From the IMG/VR virus record IMGVR_UViG_3300033121_002286: a DNA stretch of 20,000 bases. One strand, 5' to 3'. The DNA is from an uncultured virus (IMG/VR IMGVR_UViG_3300033121_002286) (taxonomy: Duplodnaviria; Heunggongvirae; Uroviricota; Caudoviricetes). The position numbers and the translations under genes are program-made. Shown here piece by piece: positions 1 to 18,998 of the stretch. The stretch's first letter is position 1. Every line of letters begins with the position of its first letter. The notes beneath the pieces were generated by a model, which saw only the letters and a list, made by a program, of their open reading frames with translations, had not been told where the DNA came from and did no database searches.

Positions 1-506
1 ATTGGAACACTGTCTGTCAAATAAACGTTGTTGTTTGATTTATAAAAGGTAAAACCATCATTATTCATTTGAACGGCATCTATTTTTAAAACGACAGGCG
101 ATCCATGTCGCTTACCAACATTGATAGCTGTTTCAAGATTATCAGACAAATGTACGTGATTTCTTGATTGTTTGGTTAGACCTAAATCCATAATTGATCC
201 AAGAAAGCGATGTGCGGTTCCATGATACAAAAAACCGGAAGGAATAAATGGTTGGAGTTCCACATCCACTTCTACACTATGCCCCTGCCTGGCTCTTATT
301 CTTTGTTGATGCTGGTCAAACTCAAACCTTTTTTTATCATTAGTTTCAACAATTTCATCAAGTTCTGTTTTTTTTATTTTTAAAATTTTTAAAATGTCAG
401 AAACATTTGCCCAACCCTTATCACTTAAAACTATCCCAACAGATTCGGGGTCATGCCTTAAAATTTTTGATAAAAATTTGCTTTGCCTTTGTAATTCTTT
501 TCTCAT
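1..506 (-). CDS. kptA: RNA 2'-phosphotransferase (KptA/Tpt1 family), 3' end beyond window edge
   Basis: Not in ORF track. Manual translation from ATG at 506: MRKELQRQSKFLSKILRHDPESVGIVLSDKGWANVSDIL...NDKKRFEF...RIRARQGHSV...LYHGT...RNHVHLS...VGKRHG...NNVYLTDSVP. It contains the Tpt1 motifs LRH, KKRF, IRAxQGHS, HGT and RxHVHLS. Confidence 0.95.
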   Translation of the reverse strand, partial: MRKELQRQSKFLSKILRHDPESVGIVLSDKGWANVSDILKILKIKKTELDEIVETNDKKRFEFDQHQQRIRARQGHSVEVDVELQPFIPSGFLYHGTAHRFLGSIMDLGLTKQSRNHVHLSDNLETAINVGKRHGSPVVLKIDAVQMNNDGFTFYKSNNNVYLTDSVP

Positions 507-536: not shown

Positions 537-3500
537 TTACAAACTTTTCTTTTTGCTTAAAACAATTTGCAACAAATCATCAAAAACACTATGTTTAACA
601 GAGTTCTCTCTGTGTTCACCATCTAAAATTTGCATTGTTATTTTTTCTTTTTTATTAAGCAACTCTTCGATATATTCATCTATTGTGTCTTGAACAACAA
701 GCCTTATAATTTGTACATTATCCGATTCTTGTCCTGCCCGATGACAACGATCCTCAGCCTGAATTCGATCTGATGGTGTCCATGGCTGATCAATAAAAAG
801 GACAGTACTGGCTGATGTCAAAGTAAGACCAACACCTGCAGCACCAATAGTTCCTGAAAACACCTTTTTCTTTTCATCTTCCATGAATTTTTCTCTTGCT
901 TCTTCCTTTTCCTCAGCCGATTTTTTCCCGGTATACCAAACAGCATTGTCTTTAAACTCCTCATATATCATTCGTGTTGTTTCAACATATTGAGAAAAAA
1001 CAACAACCTTTTCATCTCCATCAATTATGTTTCTTATAAATTCAAATGATCTTTGGGCACAAATTTTAGAAGTAAACATTTTTAATTTCTGAATTTTTGC
1101 CAAACCAACCATCCTATCATCATCTTCAGAGGTATCTTCAACAACTCCTTTTTCTAATTTTTTATATTCCCTTAATTCTTCTGGGGTTAAATAAATTGGA
1201 ATTATTGTATATGTTTTTGCTGGTAAATATTCTAAAACTCCAGGATCTTTTTTTCTTCTTCTTAAATATAAATAAGATAATTTTTGAAACAACTCTGCTT
1301 CATTCGTAGAATCATCATAATTCCAATGTCCCCACTCATCTTCTTTACCGCCACAATATTTTACTCCAAAACTGTGTGAGTTAACCCATTCAAAGGGATC
1401 AAGAAAGTTTAATACAGGAAAAAACTCATAAGGCTTGTTTTTAATGGCAGTTCCAGACATTAAAATTTTTCTTGGTGTCTTTTTAAATCCAGCATTAACA
1501 AGCTTGTATCTGCTCGATTTTACATTTTTGATATAATGACAATTAGATACCAGTATATTATTTGCATAATAATTATGATTGTCTGAAATTTCTAAATTAA
1601 AAACTTCTTTATTTCCAACACAACCGCTTCTATTGAATTGTCTATTTCCTGATTCCAGAATCTCAATACTTTCCACCCTAGAAAATTCAATATTTCCGTT
1701 TTCCTCTTGTCCAAAAATTTCCATTTTTTCATTAGATGCGTTTTTCCATCTACCTCTATTGATAATTTCAATTCTGGAAATGCCAAATCCACTTTGTAAT
1801 GATTTGGCAAACTTTTGAAAAATCCCCTCGCTGGCCTTGTTTTTATTGGATATTCCATTACCCATCCTTCTCCCAAAGAATCGTATAACCTTTGTTGCTG
1901 TTTTGTTATTTGTCCATTGCCACCTCTTGATAAAAATGTTTTTCCAACTGAACTCTTTTTCATTTTTTCTATGTTTTTTTGATCCGCCATAGGGTTGTTC
2001 AATTTCATTCGAATTGAAGATTTTTGGGCTCTTGCAGGGTTGTTCTGATAATTTTTTAAATTTGACTCTTTTACTTTTCGCTTGGTTTCTTCCGTATATA
2101 TCTTTGCCCTTATTTCCGGTTGGGACATTCTCCATTTTGCAGAACAATTCGTTGAACAAAATCTTCTTTTTTGAGATTGTTTTCCGTTTGATTTTATTTT
2201 GAATGTTTTTCCACACCATTGACATGATTTTACTATCAAAGGCTTTGAATTTCGTTTCTTTACTGCCAATTTTGATTTCTGGGTGTTCATAATTGTTTTT
2301 GAGGCGCAACTCACACTGCAATATTTTCCCTTTTTCCATATTTGCTTTTTGCTCAGCGGTTTTTGACAACACCCACACAGTATCTCCAGTTTTAATTTCT
2401 TCTGCTCTGACATATTTGTTTCCGTTTATATAGATTTTGTGATTTGGAGTGCAAACGATATCTTGTCCATTGTTTGTTCTTATTTTTAACAAACAAGATG
2501 ATGTTTGCTTCTTTATATATCTGTTTATTTTTTTATATTCATTTTTTTTTGTAATATGATTATAACTTAGTACTTTAAAATCTAAATTAAATTCAACCAA
2601 ATCTCCTATTGGAACATTACCAAATTCGGTCATAATATTTGTTTCATAAACAAAGCATTCATCAATTACGACCAAATCATAAATTGATGTTTTTAAATCC
2701 ACACCACCCTTGTCAACAAAACTACACAATTCTGTATTCCTAGATTTAACAGAATTTTCTTTAAAACACTTGGGACACATTTTGTGTTTTTTCACCTGGC
2801 TCACTTCATCAAAATCACAATAAGGATTTTGACATTTATGATGAACGTCAAACTTCAAATAAGTCTCTAAAGCATTATAACTTACAATGTGAATTTTACT
2901 TGTTTCTGGACTGCCCAATTGTAGTCCTTCTTTTTTCTTTATCTTATATTTAAAGACATATGGTACCTCATGTGTAAATTTCAAAATTTCCTTTGCCCAA
3001 ATAAGCGCAAGAGAGGCAGGACATATAATTAAAGTTTGGAAGTGGTGTTTGGCTGAATATGAAATTGCTGTAAGGGTCTTGCCCACACCTGGCTCATCCC
3101 CCAACAAAGCTACACCATCAGAACATTCAAAAAATTTAACAGCTTTCTTCTGATATAAATAAGGCTCGATCTTCATAAAAGAATAATCCTCATTTTTTAT
3201 TTCCTCATCAAAATCTCCATTCTTAAATTTTTCTACCTGGATTAATCTTTCTTTTCTTTTTTTAACATACTCTTCAACTTTCCAAATTTCTTTTTCTGAT
3301 AAATTTTCGTATTGATATAAAATGTGATTATCTTGACAATACCACATTATTTTCATTAATCCGTGAATGTTGCAAATATGAAACCAATCTTTTTTAGACT
3401 GTCCACTATCCGTAATTACAGTGTCAAAAGCGGTCTTAATCTGTTCTTTGGATATGGTTTTAAGGTGTTTTATGAGTTCTTCGTCATACCCAAACCTGAC

Positions 3501-3542
3501 CTGAAAATTGGTCCTTATACGTTTAATCTTGACTACTGGCAT
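537..3542 (-). CDS. SNF2-family (SMARCAL1/HARP-like) helicase precursor containing an intein; 629 aa after predicted splicing
   Basis: Q motif PYLYQ, Walker A LGDEPGVGKT, motif Ia LIICPASL, Walker B VVIDE/CH (split by the intein), motif III MSGTAIKN, and C-terminal motifs VVFSQY, AAGVGLTLT and QAEDRCHRAGQ. N-terminal VRFGYDEELIKHLKTI resembles a HARP domain. Confidence 0.93.
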   Translation of the reverse strand: MPVVKIKRIRTNFQVRFGYDEELIKHLKTISKEQIKTAFDTVITDSGQSKKDWFHICNIHGLMKIMWYCQDNHILYQYENLSEKEIWKVEEYVKKRKERLIQVEKFKNGDFDEEIKNEDYSFMKIEPYLYQKKAVKFFECSDGVALLGDEPGVGKTLTAISYSAKHHFQTLIICPASLALIWAKEILKFTHEVPYVFKYKIKKKEGLQLGSPETSKIHIVSYNALETYLKFDVHHKCQNPYCDFDEVSQVKKHKMCPKCFKENSVKSRNTELCSFVDKGGVDLKTSIYDLVVIDECFVYETNIMTEFGNVPIGDLVEFNLDFKVLSYNHITKKNEYKKINRYIKKQTSSCLLKIRTNNGQDIVCTPNHKIYINGNKYVRAEEIKTGDTVWVLSKTAEQKANMEKGKILQCELRLKNNYEHPEIKIGSKETKFKAFDSKIMSMVWKNIQNKIKRKTISKKKILFNELFCKMENVPTGNKGKDIYGRNQAKSKRVKFKKLSEQPCKSPKIFNSNEIEQPYGGSKKHRKNEKEFSWKNIFIKRWQWTNNKTATKVIRFFGRRMGNGISNKNKASEGIFQKFAKSLQSGFGISRIEIINRGRWKNASNEKMEIFGQEENGNIEFSRVESIEILESGNRQFNRSGCVGNKEVFNLEISDNHNYYANNILVSNCHYIKNVKSSRYKLVNAGFKKTPRKILMSGTAIKNKPYEFFPVLNFLDPFEWVNSHSFGVKYCGGKEDEWGHWNYDDSTNEAELFQKLSYLYLRRRKKDPGVLEYLPAKTYTIIPIYLTPEELREYKKLEKGVVEDTSEDDDRMVGLAKIQKLKMFTSKICAQRSFEFIRNIIDGDEKVVVFSQYVETTRMIYEEFKDNAVWYTGKKSAEEKEEAREKFMEDEKKKVFSGTIGAAGVGLTLTSASTVLFIDQPWTPSDRIQAEDRCHRAGQESDNVQIIRLVVQDTIDEYIEELLNKKEKITMQILDGEHRENSVKHSVFDDLLQIVLSKKKSL
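1542..2657 (-). mobile_element. Intein (372 aa, precursor residues 296-667) in the helicase Walker B motif
   Basis: Block A CFVYETNIMT, block B CTPNHKIY, block F/G VFNLEISDNHNYYANNILVSN followed by +1 Cys. Removing it restores VVIDE-CHYIKN. Confidence 0.95.
1592..2413 (-). CDS. Putative homing endonuclease (two Cys-rich zinc-finger-like modules, NUMOD3-like segment, DUF559/Vsr-like domain) nested in the +1 frame of the intein
   Basis: 273-aa ORF with CGCC...YCSVSC and CQWC...FCSTNC, YTEETKRKVKES, and C-terminal YKVDLAFPELKLSIEVDGKTH...DKRKTEILNFLGWKVLRFWNQEI, which is the DUF559/Vsr-like signature. Confidence 0.88.
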   Translation of the reverse strand: MSEQKKLKLEILCGCCQKPLSKKQIWKKGKYCSVSCASKTIMNTQKSKLAVKKRNSKPLIVKSCQWCGKTFKIKSNGKQSQKRRFCSTNCSAKWRMSQPEIRAKIYTEETKRKVKESNLKNYQNNPARAQKSSIRMKLNNPMADQKNIEKMKKSSVGKTFLSRGGNGQITKQQQRLYDSLGEGWVMEYPIKTRPARGFFKSLPNHYKVDLAFPELKLSIEVDGKTHLMKKWKFLDKRKTEILNFLGWKVLRFWNQEIDNSIEAVVLEIKKFLI

Positions 3543-12649: not shown

Positions 12650-13084
12650 TTATTGAATATCAATAAATTTAGTTTCTTTCTTTTTTTCTTCTAATTTAGG
12701 AATATTGATTTTCAAAATTCCATTTTCTAATTTAGAAGTAATCGATTCCTCGTTTACATTATCCGGCAGCGTAAAACTCCTACTAAACGAAGAGAAGCTA
12801 AATTCTTTACGAACCAAATTATCATTTTTGGTTTCATTTTTAATTTCTTGTTCGTAGGCGATGTTTAGTTGACCTTTTTCAACAGAAATTTTCACATCAG
12901 ATTTTTGTAATCCTGGCAGGGCCACATCCATAACGATTTCTTTTTCGTTTTCCGTGATGTTTGTTGCGGGTCCAACGTTTACATTTCTAATTTGAAGTGG
13001 TTGAAAAATATCATCAAAGAAGCTATCTTTGAAGAAATCGGTTAATAAACTTGGTTTGTAGTTTGATGTTTTAATTAAGTTCAT
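12650..13084 (-). CDS. hsp20: Small heat-shock protein (Hsp20/alpha-crystallin family)
   Basis: PATNITE, LPGLQKSDVKI, EFSFSSFSRSFTLP and SKLENGILKINIPK. The ATG at 13084 (MNLIK) is preferred over the track start at 13138. Confidence 0.95.
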   Translation of the reverse strand: MNLIKTSNYKPSLLTDFFKDSFFDDIFQPLQIRNVNVGPATNITENEKEIVMDVALPGLQKSDVKISVEKGQLNIAYEQEIKNETKNDNLVRKEFSFSSFSRSFTLPDNVNEESITSKLENGILKINIPKLEEKKKETKFIDIQ

Positions 13085-13147
13085 TTTTGTTCTCCTTTTA
13101 ATTTTTAATTTAAAAGAGAAAAACAAAAAATATACCAATAGAAAAAA

Positions 13148-13788: not shown

Positions 13789-13858
13789 AATAATAATAGA
13801 TTTATAAATTATAAATTCAAAATTAGAAAAAAATAAAATAGAAAACAAGTATTTTTAA

Positions 13859-14311
13859 TCAAATTCCTAATATTTCATAAGAAAAAATAGGAACTAAATA
13901 ATCCCTAAATTTATAGTCACATTCAAGTGTAAAATCAAGATAATCAACATCATAATCAAAGCCGTTTTTAAGTAAATTGCCGTAAGAATCAAAAAAATAG
14001 ATTTTAATAATTTCTATTTTTTCAAAATCCTTTATCCACTCATTGATTTTTAGGTAAGTTTTAACCTTTATTACTTTTCTTTTTTCAATAGTTTCAATTT
14101 TAAAACCTTTTATCCTTTCTGGATTTACAACAAAATCTTTGGTTTCCATTTTCAGACAAAAACGATCTTGGAGTATAAAACTTGTATCATAAGAAAAAAT
14201 AATTTTTTTTTCTTCAACAAATGAGTCCGGGACAAAAATATCTTGTTGAATAAAATCTTTTTCATTCATTATTTCCAAAAGCAATTCTCTTCTTCTGGTT
14301 CTAAACCTCAT
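13859..14311 (-). CDS. Hypothetical protein, weak resemblance to tail-tube-like folds
   Basis: 150-aa ORF abutting the upstream stop. QDRFCL, FFDSYGNLL and LECDY loosely recall T4 gp19-like proteins (low confidence in function). Confidence 0.7.
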   Translation of the reverse strand: MRFRTRRRELLLEIMNEKDFIQQDIFVPDSFVEEKKIIFSYDTSFILQDRFCLKMETKDFVVNPERIKGFKIETIEKRKVIKVKTYLKINEWIKDFEKIEIIKIYFFDSYGNLLKNGFDYDVDYLDFTLECDYKFRDYLVPIFSYEILGI

Positions 14312-15094
14312 TTAAACTACACGGTGTTTGTACTTTAATAATTTTTGCATTCTAACAGCATCTAAAACCAAACCATCTCCATTATTTAAGGTGATTATAA
14401 AGTTCTTAGACAATGCATCTTCAATTATTTCAAAACTTAATCTTGTGTCATTAATTCTAAATCCTCTTTCTGAAAAAAGAACTTCAAAAGGAGTTCCTGA
14501 CTTAGATTCAAATTTAACTTTAAAAGCTTTTTTTGCTGGTGCTTGATTTTGTTGTTGTTGTTGTGGGAAAATACTATCCATTTCGTTTATATCATTTTGT
14601 GCAACACCCATACCGGCCCTCTTTAATATTGGCATAGAAATATTTTTATCATACATTTCTTGAACTTGGCCTCTCAGTTGGTTTAGTTGTTCTGCACTTT
14701 GTTTAATTTGATCCATTTGAAGTTGGAGTGCCTTTTGTGTTTCAATGGCTTTCTTTTTCATCTCTTCCTGTTTTGCCATTAGGTTAGTTTTTGTTTGATT
14801 TATTGATTGGAGTTTTTTTTGGCTATCTTTAATTGCCATATCTTTAACTTTCCTTTTAGTTGGATCATTAATAATAGATTTTATTTTAGAATTATTCTGG
14901 ATCTTATCTTTTTCACCCTTTTCTTCTACATCCAAAAAAGAAAAAACTGGTTCTGTAATTGCCTTTAAATCCTCTTCAGTAGACTGAGTTTGTTTGTTAA
15001 TATCAATATTACCCATAGAATCTTGATCCAGGCTGATATTACCCAAAGCTGTTTCTATTATTAAATCTATTTCTTTAATACTTAATTTTTTCAT
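14312..15094 (-). CDS. Hypothetical coiled-coil protein
   Basis: 260-aa ORF with a Q/K-rich coiled coil; its start codon abuts the predicted left end of the TnpB element. Confidence 0.85.
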   Translation of the reverse strand: MKKLSIKEIDLIIETALGNISLDQDSMGNIDINKQTQSTEEDLKAITEPVFSFLDVEEKGEKDKIQNNSKIKSIINDPTKRKVKDMAIKDSQKKLQSINQTKTNLMAKQEEMKKKAIETQKALQLQMDQIKQSAEQLNQLRGQVQEMYDKNISMPILKRAGMGVAQNDINEMDSIFPQQQQQNQAPAKKAFKVKFESKSGTPFEVLFSERGFRINDTRLSFEIIEDALSKNFIITLNNGDGLVLDAVRMQKLLKYKHRVV

Positions 15095-16385
15095 AATTTA
15101 TAAGTGCAGGAAACCCATTCATCACGAAGTGTGGATGGAAGGAATGCACCTGCTTTTACATTTCCTATAATATTTTTTTCTAATATTTGAATTTTTAATT
15201 TTTTTGTACTATTTATGTATAAATGAAACTGACTCTTAAAATAAAACTTCTTGCAACAGATGAGCAATCTAAACATTTGCTTAATACCATTAGGGAAGCA
15301 AATTTGGCTTGCAATATAATTTCGAATGTGGTTTGGGAAAAAAGAATTTTTAATCAGTTTAAAATTCACAATGAAGTTTATCATTCGATTAAGGAATCCA
15401 CCAACCTTTCTGCTCAAGTAATCATACGCTGCATCAGCAAAGTGACGGATGCATATAAGTTGGACAAAAAAACCAAACGTATATTTAGACCACTGGGAAG
15501 CATAACTTACGACCCAAGAATTCTTTCGTATACTCCAAATGATACCGTTTCCATTTGGACAGTCGGTGGTCGTTTGAAAAAACTTCCATTTATATGTCAC
15601 AACAGAAATTACCTTCCTTATATTAAGGGCGAGGCTGATCTTGTTTATAAAAAAGGAAAATTTTATTTGTTTCAAACGGTAGAAGTTCCTGATGAAAAAA
15701 TAACGGATGTGGAAGAATTTATCGGTATTGATTTTGGTATTACAGATATTATATCCACCTCTGATAATATTAAACATTCGGCTGAATGGCTCAATAACTA
15801 TAGAGAAAAAAAACAAAACATACGCAGTTCTATCCAAGCAAAGGCAGACACTTCTAAGCGTTCCACAAAAAGGAATTGTAGGAAATTGTCCAAACGGCTT
15901 TCGGGCAAGGAAAAAACAACGGCAACAATAATTAATCACACCATTTCCAAATCTATTGTAAAACTTGCTAAAGAGCAAAACAAAGGAATTGCTATTGAAG
16001 ATTTGACTGGTATTCGTTTTGCTTCTAAAAAAAGAAATAAAACCTTTAGAACAAAACTTGGCAAATGGAATTTCCATCAACTTCGTTCTTTTTTGGAATA
16101 CAAGAGTGTTCTTTCCGGGGTTAAGTTGGTTGTTGTTCCTCCTGCATACACCAGTCAAATGTGTCATGTATGCAAACACATTGGAAAGCGAACAAACAAG
16201 GTTTTCGAATGTACAAATGAAAATTGCAAGGAAAAAATTCTTGACGCTGACAATAATGCCAGCAAGAACATTTCTTTGCTTGGGGTTGCTATAAATCAGC
16301 CTGAAAAATCGACTCTGTATTGCACTATGCATTCTGTGTCAGGTTTAAAACCCAATCATCACATAAGTGTGATTGGGTAGTTTAT
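15095..16385 (+). mobile_element. Non-autonomous IS200/IS605-family element (tnpB only)
   Basis: Homologous subterminal hairpins flank tnpB: left GAAA-CCCATTCATCAC-GAA-GTGTGGATGG (15110-15138) and right AAAA-CCCAATCATCAC-ATAA-GTGTGATTGGG (16347-16377). No tnpA is present. The ends are inferred from the guide/cleavage tetranucleotide rule; a left end at 15102 is an alternative. Confidence 0.8.
15223..16380 (+). CDS. tnpB: TnpB RNA-guided endonuclease
   Basis: RuvC I IGIDFG, RuvC II IAIEDL, zinc finger YTSQMCHVC...FECTNENC, RuvC III DADNNASKNI. All three catalytic acidic residues are present. Confidence 0.96.
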   Translation: MKLTLKIKLLATDEQSKHLLNTIREANLACNIISNVVWEKRIFNQFKIHNEVYHSIKESTNLSAQVIIRCISKVTDAYKLDKKTKRIFRPLGSITYDPRILSYTPNDTVSIWTVGGRLKKLPFICHNRNYLPYIKGEADLVYKKGKFYLFQTVEVPDEKITDVEEFIGIDFGITDIISTSDNIKHSAEWLNNYREKKQNIRSSIQAKADTSKRSTKRNCRKLSKRLSGKEKTTATIINHTISKSIVKLAKEQNKGIAIEDLTGIRFASKKRNKTFRTKLGKWNFHQLRSFLEYKSVLSGVKLVVVPPAYTSQMCHVCKHIGKRTNKVFECTNENCKEKILDADNNASKNISLLGVAINQPEKSTLYCTMHSVSGLKPNHHISVIG

Positions 16386-16405
16386 GTTCAAAACTCTATA
16401 TAAAT
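16230..16405 (+). ncRNA. Predicted omegaRNA/reRNA (tnpB 3' end, right-end hairpin and flanking guide)
   Basis: Inferred from the established TnpB architecture. The right-end hairpin is visible, the 5' boundary is a guess, and the guide is predicted to start at 16386. Confidence 0.5.
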
Positions 16406-16413
16406 AGCCTTAT

Positions 16414-16450
16414 AAAAAGAAAAACCGCATCAAAAAAATGCGGTTCTTTT
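16414..16450. terminator. Bidirectional intrinsic terminator
   Basis: AACCGCAT/ATGCGGTT stem with A and T tracts on either side. Confidence 0.7.
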
Positions 16451-16491
16451 AGTTTGAAAGCAATCTACAATATTTGATAAATATTAAAAAA

Positions 16492-16674
16492 TCATTTCCC
16501 CATCAACGAATCTAAATAAGCTTTAAATTTCTTTTTCTGAGCTTCCACAAGAGATTGACGCTTTTTAGTTCTTTCAGCCTTGTTAGCTTGTGTCTTCTTA
16601 AATCTAGCCGCCCTTTTCTCTCCCCTCTTTAAGGTTGCCATTCTTTTCTTAATGCTTTTTTCAGGTTTTCTCAT
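16492..16674 (-). CDS. Small very basic protein
   Basis: 60-aa K/R-rich ORF preceded by ATATTTAT (16691-16698) and followed by a terminator. Confidence 0.7.
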   Translation of the reverse strand: MRKPEKSIKKRMATLKRGEKRAARFKKTQANKAERTKKRQSLVEAQKKKFKAYLDSLMGK

Positions 16675-16724
16675 TTTGAATTAATTTTTAATAAATATAA
16701 ATCTCAACAATAAAAAATCAATAA

Positions 16725-18998
16725 TTATTCTCCCCTTTTTTCTAATTCATCTCTTGCTTCTGCAGCCTTTTCAAAATCTCCAGCATCTATTGATTTTAAA
16801 ATGAAGTTTTTTAATTCCTGGGTTTGCATTTGATCAAATGGTTTTAATTGAACAGGTTCCTCTTTTTTAACTATTGGTTTATTTAACATATCTCCTATTT
16901 GACCCATCAAATTTTGAATATTGCCAAAATCAGCAACAGGAATTTCTTCATCTGGACCTTGTTGTTCAAGATCATACTCAACCCGATCTAACATTTTTTC
17001 AAGCCACACCACAGCTCTTGCCCCGTCATTTATCAACAAATCAACTAAACGTAAGAACTTATCTGGTGGAAGCATAGATATTTCTTGCAACAAATAAGCA
17101 ACTATTGTATAATCCGAATCTCTTCCCTTTACAATAAAATCTATTGCATCATGCAAATATTTCCATATTCTTGGACCTAAAAGTTTATGCCAATATTCAT
17201 AATGAAATTGATCTGATTGTTTCATTATTGCACGATTTATTTTTTCGGTATATTGTGGCAAACCATTAGCAAAAATATATTCAATAACAGCCTTTACCGT
17301 TTCATGTAGCAAAACCGGAAAAACAGTTGCTTCCGCAACTGCTCCAGTTACTTCTCTAATTCCATCACCATTTTTGTCATCACCCAATATAAGTTCTGAT
17401 TTTCCGTGAATTGGAATATTTGTAATTTTATTATTTTCTATTTCAATATCACCCTTTTCAAATGGTTTGTTTTTCCAAAGAGATAAATTGTGAGCACTCA
17501 TTATTTTAACATAAAAATTATACAACTCAGGATTAATCGCATCAAGTGCTGGTTTTATTTTTTCTAAAAGATTGTGTGCTTTAAAACCGGCACCCATCAT
17601 CAAAGTATTAGCAATAATTCTCTTATCAACATTTTGTTTAATTATCGCTTGTTCTTCAGGTGTAAAATCATCTATTAACTCTTCTTCATCAAAATCCTGA
17701 TCTTCTACTTTAAAATCAATATCATTTGGGTTTGATTGTAGTTTTACCTGTATCTCATCCATTACATCTTGAGGAACACCAAAATATTTTTGCACAACAT
17801 TTTTTGCAAGCCTTTCAAGTGTGTCTTTATGTTTTTGCTGTACTCCCATTGCTTTTTGCAAATACATTAAGACATCCATATCACTCATATTTTCAGCACC
17901 AAATTTTTTTGCAGTGTCAACAACATCTTTATACTCTTCATCACCCAATTTTTCAATTGTTTTTTGCACATCCCCTTTGTGTAAAATATCAATTTTAGAA
18001 AAAGGGTTTGTGCCTCTTTTTTCTATATTTCTTTTTGCATCATCATTTGGCCCACCTATTTTATCATCTTTATAATTCATTGGAGCATCTTCTTGAATTT
18101 CTGATTTTGCCTTTGGAGCTGGTTTTGCACCAGGATGAATTTGTGGTTTTAATATACGCCTTGGGTTGGGTTGTGCAGGGGCTGGTTGAACTCCTGGTTT
18201 AATTTTAGGTTGTGCTGGTGCAACTTCTTGACCTGCTTTTGGGGCAGGTTTTGCACCAGGATGAATTTGTGGTTTTAATATACGTCTTGGGTTAGGTTGT
18301 GCAGGAGCAGGTTGAACATTTGGTTTAATTTTAGGTTGTGCTGGTGCTATTTCAGGACTTTCAAAAAAGTTTTTTACAGTTTCAAAAATTTTCTTTCTTA
18401 TAATATTTTCATCTGATTGTTTTGACTCTTGCATTTGTATTTTTCCTTTTAATATTCCTAACACTAGCTCATCTGAATTTTCAAAGTTATCCTTATTATT
18501 TTTTAAAACATTATAAATGGCACCATACATTCTTGTATCACCTTCATTATATGAAATAGTAGATTTGGATTCTTTGTAAAAATCCAACATTTCTTTTGAT
18601 TGATTTGTTTTCTGAAGCCAACTTTCTATTATAGATAGTGCATATTTATTTGCTTGGCGTTCTTCTTCTAATGCAATTTGAATATATTTATCTAATGGAT
18701 ACTTGGTTAACGAAACCATATCATAATCTATAGTATCATATCTTTTAAAGTGTCCGGTTTCATGTAAAATAATAAAAACTGCTTTTTCATAATTATTAGA
18801 ATTTATGGTCTTAAAACTTTCAGACAAAAAAACTCCACTTCTAAGTGAAATAGCGCCAAACCTCCCGCCAAAAACCGGAAAATCTTCTATAAAAAAGGGC
18901 ACACTTGATGCTTCAGTGTTTAAAAACTCTGAAAATAGAGAAGAAAAATCAGGGTTGAATTTATGAATTTGGGATACTATATGATCTAACTTTGACAT
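16725..18998 (-). CDS. Large modular protein: HExxH metallopeptidase-like N-domain, Pro-rich repeats, helical domain, UVR-like C-terminal motif
   Basis: ILHETGH...EEERQAN, two 42-aa Pro-rich units, FPVLLHETVKAVIE, and SIDAGDFEKAAEARDEL at the C-terminus. Confidence 0.8.
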   Translation of the reverse strand: MSKLDHIVSQIHKFNPDFSSLFSEFLNTEASSVPFFIEDFPVFGGRFGAISLRSGVFLSESFKTINSNNYEKAVFIILHETGHFKRYDTIDYDMVSLTKYPLDKYIQIALEEERQANKYALSIIESWLQKTNQSKEMLDFYKESKSTISYNEGDTRMYGAIYNVLKNNKDNFENSDELVLGILKGKIQMQESKQSDENIIRKKIFETVKNFFESPEIAPAQPKIKPNVQPAPAQPNPRRILKPQIHPGAKPAPKAGQEVAPAQPKIKPGVQPAPAQPNPRRILKPQIHPGAKPAPKAKSEIQEDAPMNYKDDKIGGPNDDAKRNIEKRGTNPFSKIDILHKGDVQKTIEKLGDEEYKDVVDTAKKFGAENMSDMDVLMYLQKAMGVQQKHKDTLERLAKNVVQKYFGVPQDVMDEIQVKLQSNPNDIDFKVEDQDFDEEELIDDFTPEEQAIIKQNVDKRIIANTLMMGAGFKAHNLLEKIKPALDAINPELYNFYVKIMSAHNLSLWKNKPFEKGDIEIENNKITNIPIHGKSELILGDDKNGDGIREVTGAVAEATVFPVLLHETVKAVIEYIFANGLPQYTEKINRAIMKQSDQFHYEYWHKLLGPRIWKYLHDAIDFIVKGRDSDYTIVAYLLQEISMLPPDKFLRLVDLLINDGARAVVWLEKMLDRVEYDLEQQGPDEEIPVADFGNIQNLMGQIGDMLNKPIVKKEEPVQLKPFDQMQTQELKNFILKSIDAGDFEKAAEARDELEKRGE
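18108..18353 (-). repeat. Tandem duplication with 126-nt period (about 2 copies), encoding a Pro-rich 42-aa unit
   Basis: GGTTTTGCACCAGGATGAATTTGTGGTTTTAATATACG occurs at 18121 and 18247; unit E[IV]APAQPKIKP[NG]VQPAPAQPNPRRILKPQIHPGAKPAPKA. Confidence 0.95.

Follow-up and report, generated by a model that had tools for sequence, protein, structure and literature searches.

An IS200/IS605-type TnpB transposon in an uncultured phage with a conserved antisense open reading frame ending at the start codon of a phage gene

A 20,000-nucleotide stretch of DNA from an uncultured virus (IMG/VR record IMGVR_UViG_3300033121_002286; Duplodnaviria, Heunggongvirae, Uroviricota, Caudoviricetes), referred to below as the window, was found to resemble part of an AT-rich phage genome and to carry a TnpB-only transposon of the IS200/IS605 type. 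The element is 1291 bp in length (15095..16385, plus strand; placed by comparison of 80 loci) and its tnpB gene encodes a protein of 385 amino acids (aa) (15223..16380, plus strand). It sits directly in front of a phage gene of 260 aa on the minus strand (14312..15094), the ATG of which abuts the left end of the element. On the strand opposite tnpB, and in codon register with it, lies an antisense open reading frame (ORF) of 413 codons plus a TGA (15091..16332, minus strand), which is the subject of the present analysis.

The TnpB protein was assigned to the Pfam family Cas12f1-like_TNB (1.5e-17, 63.9 bits with a cut-off of 26.3), while its score with OrfB_IS605 was 26.2 bits, under that model's cut-off of 30.5. 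Residues D170, E259 and D343 and the cysteines C314, C317 and C330 were invariant in an alignment of 24 sequences (alignment A1). No match to Y1_Tnp, the model for the Y1 transposase TnpA, was found among the window ORFs scanned, which agrees with the TnpB-only (IS1341-type) subtype. The left end (15095..15222, plus strand, 128 nt) does not code for tnpB and can form an imperfect hairpin with an outer stem (15104-15108/15145-15149) and an inner stem-loop (15115-15138); this hairpin is weak in the window copy (z = -0.9), and compensatory stem changes were observed among relatives. The right end (16350..16385, plus strand) consists of a hairpin at 16350-16378 and the terminal TAGTTTAT, with a fold z of -4.9. 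In relatives the right ends finish with a conserved GGTAGTTTA[C/T] and the left ends begin directly after a conserved TTCAT, the target or transposon-adjacent motif (TAM), which in the window occupies 15090..15094 (plus strand). The first-pass annotation of the sequence had proposed TCAT as the target; these four letters are indeed part of the motif, the full extent of which is TTCAT. The putative omega-RNA/right-end part is conserved in sequence among relatives, and a search of Rfam returned only sub-threshold chance matches, around the terminator hairpin. The flank adjoining the right end (16386..16401, plus strand, defined by position only) is expected, from how TnpB elements work, to be the stretch of the empty site that the omega-RNA guide would match.

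RNA-library material was available from four metatranscriptome runs covering small parts of the window, the contigs of which carry no strand. These contigs comprised flank pieces, diverged pieces of the tnpB genes of relatives and one further contig which joins 15092 to 16384 and omits exactly 1291 bases, with the joint ambiguous by 2 letters; this material has no bearing on antisense transcription of the element, and its lack of cover for most of it is not evidence. A contig lacking exactly 1291 bases represents the empty site and so confirms the borders of the element. With its TnpB, hairpins at both ends, insertion 3' of a motif without target duplication and a clean empty site, the element is a TnpB-only (IS1341-type) member of the IS200/IS605 family.

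The antisense frame is open, stop to stop, from 16338 down to 15094. Positions 15091 and 15223 are both 1 mod 3, so that the antisense codons are the exact complements of the tnpB codons, and an antisense stop corresponds to a TTA, CTA or TCA in tnpB. The gene uses 31 leucine and 31 serine codons without a single one of these three in codons 1-372. The first-pass annotation had read the two frames as codon-registered, which they are, and had noted about 30 leucines and the absence of the three codons from the first 370 positions; the absence is real and extends slightly further. TCA makes its first appearance at codon 373 (16339) and TTA at codon 375 (16345), as had also been noted; both (16339..16347, plus strand) are conserved and fall in the omega-RNA/right-end part. 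Their complements, a TGA and a TAA, are in register with the antisense frame and bound it on the upstream side of the antisense ATG.

In the other genes of the window (24 genes, 5765 codons), TTA accounts for 210 and CTA for 27 of 468 leucine codons and TCA for 96 of 353 serine codons, the three together amounting to 5.8 per 100 codons, which gives P = 4.6e-14 for their complete absence from tnpB. When tnpB was resampled synonymously 20,000 times with flank codon usage, the longest open antisense run was 54 codons at the median and never more than 169, and the longest comparable run in any other gene of the window is 75 codons. The tnpB gene uses GCA, ATA, GTA, ACA, CCA, AAA and GAA at flank-like shares; since other A-ending codons are used as in the flanks, the avoidance is confined to the three codons whose complements are stops. 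The remaining two antisense frames of the gene contain 18 and 28 stops. The frame also continues through the 128 nt of the left end with no in-register stop, compared with five and four stops in the other frames. The openness of the antisense frame is far beyond chance. Avoidance of particular DNA motifs was considered as a cause and rejected, as the same trinucleotides are abundant in the other two frames of tnpB. A shortage of the corresponding tRNAs was likewise rejected, as the flanking genes use TTA, CTA and TCA freely.

At the left-end junction the antisense frame and the phage gene overlap by an ATGA on the minus strand, the host ATG lying at 15094..15092 and the antisense TGA at 15093..15091. 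Both are contained in ATGAA, the reverse complement of TTCAT. The openness of the left end, the overlap and its automatic creation by the target motif had each been proposed by the first-pass annotation, and all three were borne out.

Comparison with relatives was carried out on viral-contig loci, using the best 80 of 124 confirmed relatives (56-81% TnpB identity), from which 45 representatives below 90% nucleotide identity were drawn; about 355 core codons were compared and the last 15 codons, which overlap the right end, were excluded. None of the three codons was present in 41 of the 45 representatives, in the flanking genes of which they occur at 1.6-10.2 per 100 codons. The exceptions are loci L018 (one such codon), L073 (one), L074 (three) and L053 (28). 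CTA, TCA and TTA were the most depleted of all 61 codons (ratios of 0.02, 0.02 and 0.06), the next codon having a ratio of 0.33. Summed over the representatives, antisense stops within tnpB numbered 33 in register as against 791 and 1442 in the other frames, or 5 as against 776 and 1409 when L053 is left out. A second collection of 80 metagenome loci, of which 15 were already in the first set, provided 58 distinct new tnpB genes; 50 of these have none of the three codons, five have one and three have two. Copies in Bacteroidota genomes (L081-L087; Chitinophagaceae, Cyclobacteriaceae, Cytophagales and others, 44-68% identity) have between zero and one.

Locus L053 (2897-4124) contains 28 of the avoided codons and four left-end stops, has a shifted register and lies in a context of 26% GC; when the tree is rooted at its midpoint, this locus clusters with the window element. 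It is a natural example of relaxed constraint, in which the trait has been lost. Among distant cyanobacterial and archaeal relatives (34-45% identity), some TnpB genes have 9-28 such codons, as their flanks predict, and others have 0-5 where 9-22 are expected. The existence of L053 and of these distant genes with 9-28 such codons indicates that TnpB function does not require the avoidance. The open-frame trait is clade-structured and may extend well beyond the TnpB family of the window. Within the genome-contig loci L088-L160 the distant cyanobacterial TnpB genes are bimodal, and L098, L140, L152 and L156, for instance, are free of the three codons; the antisense frame of L156 in addition spans its left end completely, TTCAT included. 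At another site (L056:2877-4162) lies a copy, 92% identical to the element of the window, in which an indel of one base breaks tnpB, and likewise the antisense frame, into two open parts that overlap; this copy is either a recent pseudogene or an assembly error.

The conservation of the frame was compared with that of the peptide it would encode. An alignment of 40 representatives was used, with L053, L074, L072, L018 and L073 dropped as lost or truncated. For pairs with a TnpB identity of 55-65%, identical residues had identical codons at a frequency of 0.51 compared with 0.45 after synonymous shuffling, which implies that synonymous sites are close to saturation. In the same pairs the identity of antisense residues was 0.36-0.37, compared with 0.32 after synonymous shuffling. 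The closest intact relative of the window element (L161, 91.6% nucleotide identity, inserted at a different site) differs from it in 85 codons. Read on the sense strand, these comprise 54 synonymous and 31 non-synonymous changes, while on the antisense strand 18 are synonymous and 67 non-synonymous, with no stop created. As the antisense peptide is barely conserved, selection maintains the openness of the frame rather than a protein. No Pfam match was obtained for the peptide, in keeping with the earlier remark that it resembles nothing recognised.

The junction with host DNA was examined at 45 sites, with L039 and L040 merged as one and loci without a recognisable TTCAT and left end dropped. 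At 35 of the 45 the target's TCA shares the codon register of tnpB (p = 1e-9 against one third); at four sites the host ATG is in frame and at six the third register applies. Left-end antisense stops summed over these sites number 20 in register compared with 159 and 139 in the other frames, and the antisense frame is free of stops as far as the TGA of the target at 29 of 45. In the second collection, register 0 was found in 36 of 42 sites and the complete frame in 30 of 42. With a left end that is kept free of stops and most often has a length divisible by three, the TCA in the target turns into an in-frame TGA overlapping the host ATG. The first-pass annotation had suggested, as a check, that relatives be compared for an antisense frame kept open up to the left-end junction, and this is what the counts from both collections show. 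The frame is under selection to stay open up to the junction.

An ATG was counted as a true host start codon if, with the empty site rebuilt, it began a host ORF of 60 codons or more and an in-frame stop lay at most 20 codons upstream. Among the 39 sites at which both flanks could be read, the element adjoins such a start at 24; in the same flanks 99 of 989 TTCAT sites (10%) qualify as starts (p = 6e-15). In the rebuilt empty site of the window, an in-frame stop lies 8 codons upstream of the ATG of the displaced gene. At 23 of 40 sites both neighbouring genes are on the antisense strand. The right end of the window element begins, in reverse complement, with ATAAAC, placing a TAA at offset 1, and the TAA of the corresponding (G/A)TAAAC serves, at 16 of 40 sites, as the stop of an upstream host ORF that has 60 codons or more and reaches the right end (L007, L009, L014, L019, L028, L032, L035 and nine other loci). 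These 16 sites were ATGA-type gene junctions at which the element makes good the lost TGA with an in-frame TAA, and the last codon of the upstream gene acquires G or A as its third base. As the right end supplies an in-frame TAA, insertion into an ATGA junction keeps the length of the upstream protein. One site (L058-L066) was represented by ten loci; in nine of them the left end is one base longer (124 nt) and the antisense frame passes the target in frame into a host gene of 231 codons, making an ORF of 645 codons, and in the tenth (L060) the left end differs by one base and contains five in-register stops.

A possible source of antisense transcripts in the window is the phage promoter-like motif CTATTTAT at 16400..16407 (minus strand), which is cut off from its gene and points into the right end, as the first-pass annotation had pointed out. 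It occurs seven times in the window compared with 2.4 expected (seven copies were reached in 1 of 200 shuffles), and four of the other copies lie 20-30 nt upstream of gene starts. The copy at 16400-16407 was probably the promoter of the displaced gene and would now fire into the element. A scan for sigma-70-type promoters gave 5 matches compared with 7.1 in shuffles and is uninformative for this host type. The motif CTATTTAT also occurs on the plus strand at 15209..15216, 7 nt before the ATG of tnpB itself, where relatives have TATATTTG or TATCTTTG. The latter two resemble the Bacteroidetes -7 box. The element may have adapted its promoter to the phage of the window.

On this evidence we consider it rather probable that the antisense frame acts as a translated bridge, which would limit polarity and hand ribosomes on to the displaced gene. 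The TnpB-only transposon has inserted backwards after TTCAT, precisely between the promoter and leader of a phage gene and its ATG. In this scheme host transcripts would enter the element at its right end, in the window starting at the CTATTTAT motif at 16400. Some 50 nt further in, ribosomes would initiate at the antisense AUG (16332) and make some 413 codons of a meaningless peptide. The coupling of transcription and translation would thereby be maintained, with no Rho-type polarity and less mRNA decay. On reaching the UGA that overlaps the host AUG, the ribosomes would terminate, and re-initiation would be possible. The cost of the transposon would be lowered, favouring its persistence at start codons inside compact phage operons. 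The antisense translation, and its benefit to downstream expression, are what we infer from the pattern of codons and junctions.

An extension of this scheme, on which opinion could fall evenly to either side, is that the Bacteroidota/phage TnpB clade as a whole is 'ambigrammatic'. TTCAT would steer the element to, or permit its survival at, start codons and ATGA junctions, the right end would give the upstream gene a TAA and the reverse strand would relay ribosomes, leaving both neighbouring proteins unchanged and expressed. This would be a third route, beside introns and inteins, by which an element might hide in an operon, and several cyanobacterial clades seem to share the open reverse frame.

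A number of observations weigh against the translated bridge. Two in-register stops are conserved in the right-end/omega-RNA part, so that ribosomes need a fresh initiation, situated in most members 41-56 nt inward from the right end. Among 41 representatives the first antisense start codon is ATG in 28, GTG in nine and TTG in three and is absent in one, it is the complement of a conserved histidine codon, and no Shine-Dalgarno-like motif is evident upstream of it. In the window a two-way terminator-like hairpin (16420..16448) stands between an upstream gene for a basic protein of 60 aa (16492..16674, minus strand) and the CTATTTAT motif, so that the bridge in this phage hinges on an unproven promoter. 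The likely hosts are Bacteroidota, in which Shine-Dalgarno pairing is little used, and the host ATG might therefore start unaided and leave the anti-polarity part alone. At the junction, 16 of the 45 sites are without a complete bridge, 15 of 39 are not at start codons, and distinct left-end lengths show only a modest excess of multiples of three (11 of 20). The register is inherited with the element, and the sites behind the count of 35 of 45 are therefore not independent events; the target assignment of L057 is also doubtful, as its motif looks like TTTAT. Two further ideas on the entry of ribosomes were discarded. Entry into the antisense ORF by read-through of the upstream host gene was rejected because of the two conserved right-end stops, and selection for an ATG at the antisense start is unsupported, this codon being the complement of a conserved histidine and GTG in one subgroup. 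The antisense ATG of the window (16332) lies 18 nt past the right-end hairpin on the antisense RNA.

The alternative that survives best, although we consider it unlikely, is that the frame is translated or held open to the advantage of the element itself rather than of the host gene. Ribosomes on read-through antisense RNA might block its pairing with tnpB mRNA or omega-RNA, or might stabilise a regulatory antisense RNA. The selection of openness and not of the peptide suits any model in which translation is itself the function, as has been proposed for ambigrammatic narnaviruses (PMC8316113), and some distant cyanobacterial TnpB genes are antisense-open without an obvious host ATG at the junction. 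However, this alternative leaves unexplained a left end that is open exactly to the junction, the TCA in register at 35 of 45 sites and the start codons at 24 of 39.

A second alternative, distinctly less probable than the first, is that the frame counters polarity only, the host ATG being initiated independently and the ATGA marking where the frame must end to keep ribosomes off the host start. It is consistent with the lack of a Shine-Dalgarno motif in the host leaders adjoining the right end, and register 0 is the sole register that causes neither a fusion to the host gene nor an out-of-frame run over it. On the other hand, ATGA and TAATG overlaps are the classic arrangement for coupling, and the data presented here fit both possibilities. 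This alternative is a sub-case of the translated bridge rather than a true rival.

We regard it as very unlikely that the antisense ORF encodes a functional protein overprinted on the transposon gene, even though the ORF is long and its presence is kept across the family. The identity of its residues is barely above the synonymous-shuffle expectation, 67 of 85 changed codons alter the antisense residue between 92%-identical copies, the product has no Pfam match, the start codon is not fixed, and the ORF traverses the hairpin-forming left end. Finally, a functionless shadow ORF arising from donor codon bias, which the first-pass annotation had allowed as part of the explanation, is the least credible alternative and is already refuted: in-register antisense frames do open most easily and are common in GC-rich genes, and Streptomyces relatives lack the three codons through bias alone (G+C at third codon positions, GC3, of 0.87), but the tnpB of the window is AT-rich with a GC3 of 0.31, the depletion is confined to three codons family-wide, near-saturated synonymous sites still never reach them, the open frame extends in register into the non-coding left end, and L053 shows what a relaxed sequence looks like.

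The translated bridge has parallels in systems already described, the nearest being the ambigrammatic narnaviruses. In these a reverse ORF runs in register over nearly the whole forward gene through avoidance of UUA, CUA and UCA; it shows the same conserved openness and a peptide without homology, and translation itself has been proposed as the function (PMC6884476; PMC8316113). The narnaviruses have RNA genomes and infect eukaryotes, and the benefit put forward is that the viral RNA is protected (PMC6884476; PMC8316113); here a DNA transposon of phages and bacteria is concerned, with a frame that ends in a stop/start overlap with a host gene. The likeness lies in the manner of working and not in membership, the element being a DNA transposon with TnpB and not a virus with an RNA genome and an RdRp, or RNA-dependent RNA polymerase. 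Another way of reducing harm within a host transcript is seen in the IStrons, in which an IS605-type element is fused to a group I intron and, lying in sense orientation, is self-spliced from the RNA. The element described here also bears TnpB and would also reduce such harm; in contrast to IStrons it has an antisense orientation, and ribosomes would cross it by translation. In operons, genes whose stop and start codons overlap as ATGA or TAATG are well known to be translationally coupled. The four-letter overlap is the same in the present case, except that the upstream cistron is the reverse strand of a transposon and the overlap is made by the target motif at every insertion.

With the TnpB-only IS200/IS605 elements that use an omega-RNA (ISDra2, ISGst) the window element shares the TnpB gene, the subterminal hairpins, a mode of insertion that places it 3' of a 5-nt motif and duplicates nothing, and the lack of a transposase aboard (Meers et al., 2023; 10.1101/2023.03.14.532601). 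It differs from them in that the whole element, including the left end, is shaped for antisense translation. TTCAT itself is a known motif, given in that paper for the IscB of ISGst5, and its passages on TTCAT and on start codons mention no antisense frame, start-codon sites or host-gene coupling (Meers et al., 2023; 10.1101/2023.03.14.532601). In the published literature searched, no description of an antisense design of TnpB elements was found. The carrier is an ordinary TnpB-only IS200/IS605 element, and the antisense design is the undescribed part.

If the frame is translated, it would represent an undescribed strategy for a DNA transposon, based on backward translatability in place of the RNA splicing of introns and IStrons or the protein splicing of inteins. 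It would explain the persistence of TnpB elements in gene-dense phage genomes, as well as a target motif that mirrors a start codon and the avoidance of three codons by tnpB, and would give the puzzle posed by the ambigrammatic narnaviruses a parallel in bacteria. For annotation, it would mean that the long ORFs labelled 'hypothetical' on the strand facing tnpB are no ordinary genes, and for engineering it offers a possible design route to non-polar insertions.

As regards the phage, a search of GenBank phage DNA with 13800..17800 and a protein search with TnpB (E up to 1e-30) gave no match, and no function could be assigned from PHROGs or Pfam to the displaced gene, its 260-aa product being without a family match, or to its upstream neighbours. 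Elsewhere in the window are genes for a Tpt1/KptA RNA 2'-phosphotransferase (3..506, minus strand, 6e-49) and an Hsp20 small heat-shock protein (12650..13138, minus strand), and an endolysin and a PD-(D/E)XK nuclease are also encoded. A SNF2-family helicase (537..3542, minus strand) contains an intein (Intein_splicing at residues 309-667), which adds a second type of self-removing mobile element to the window.

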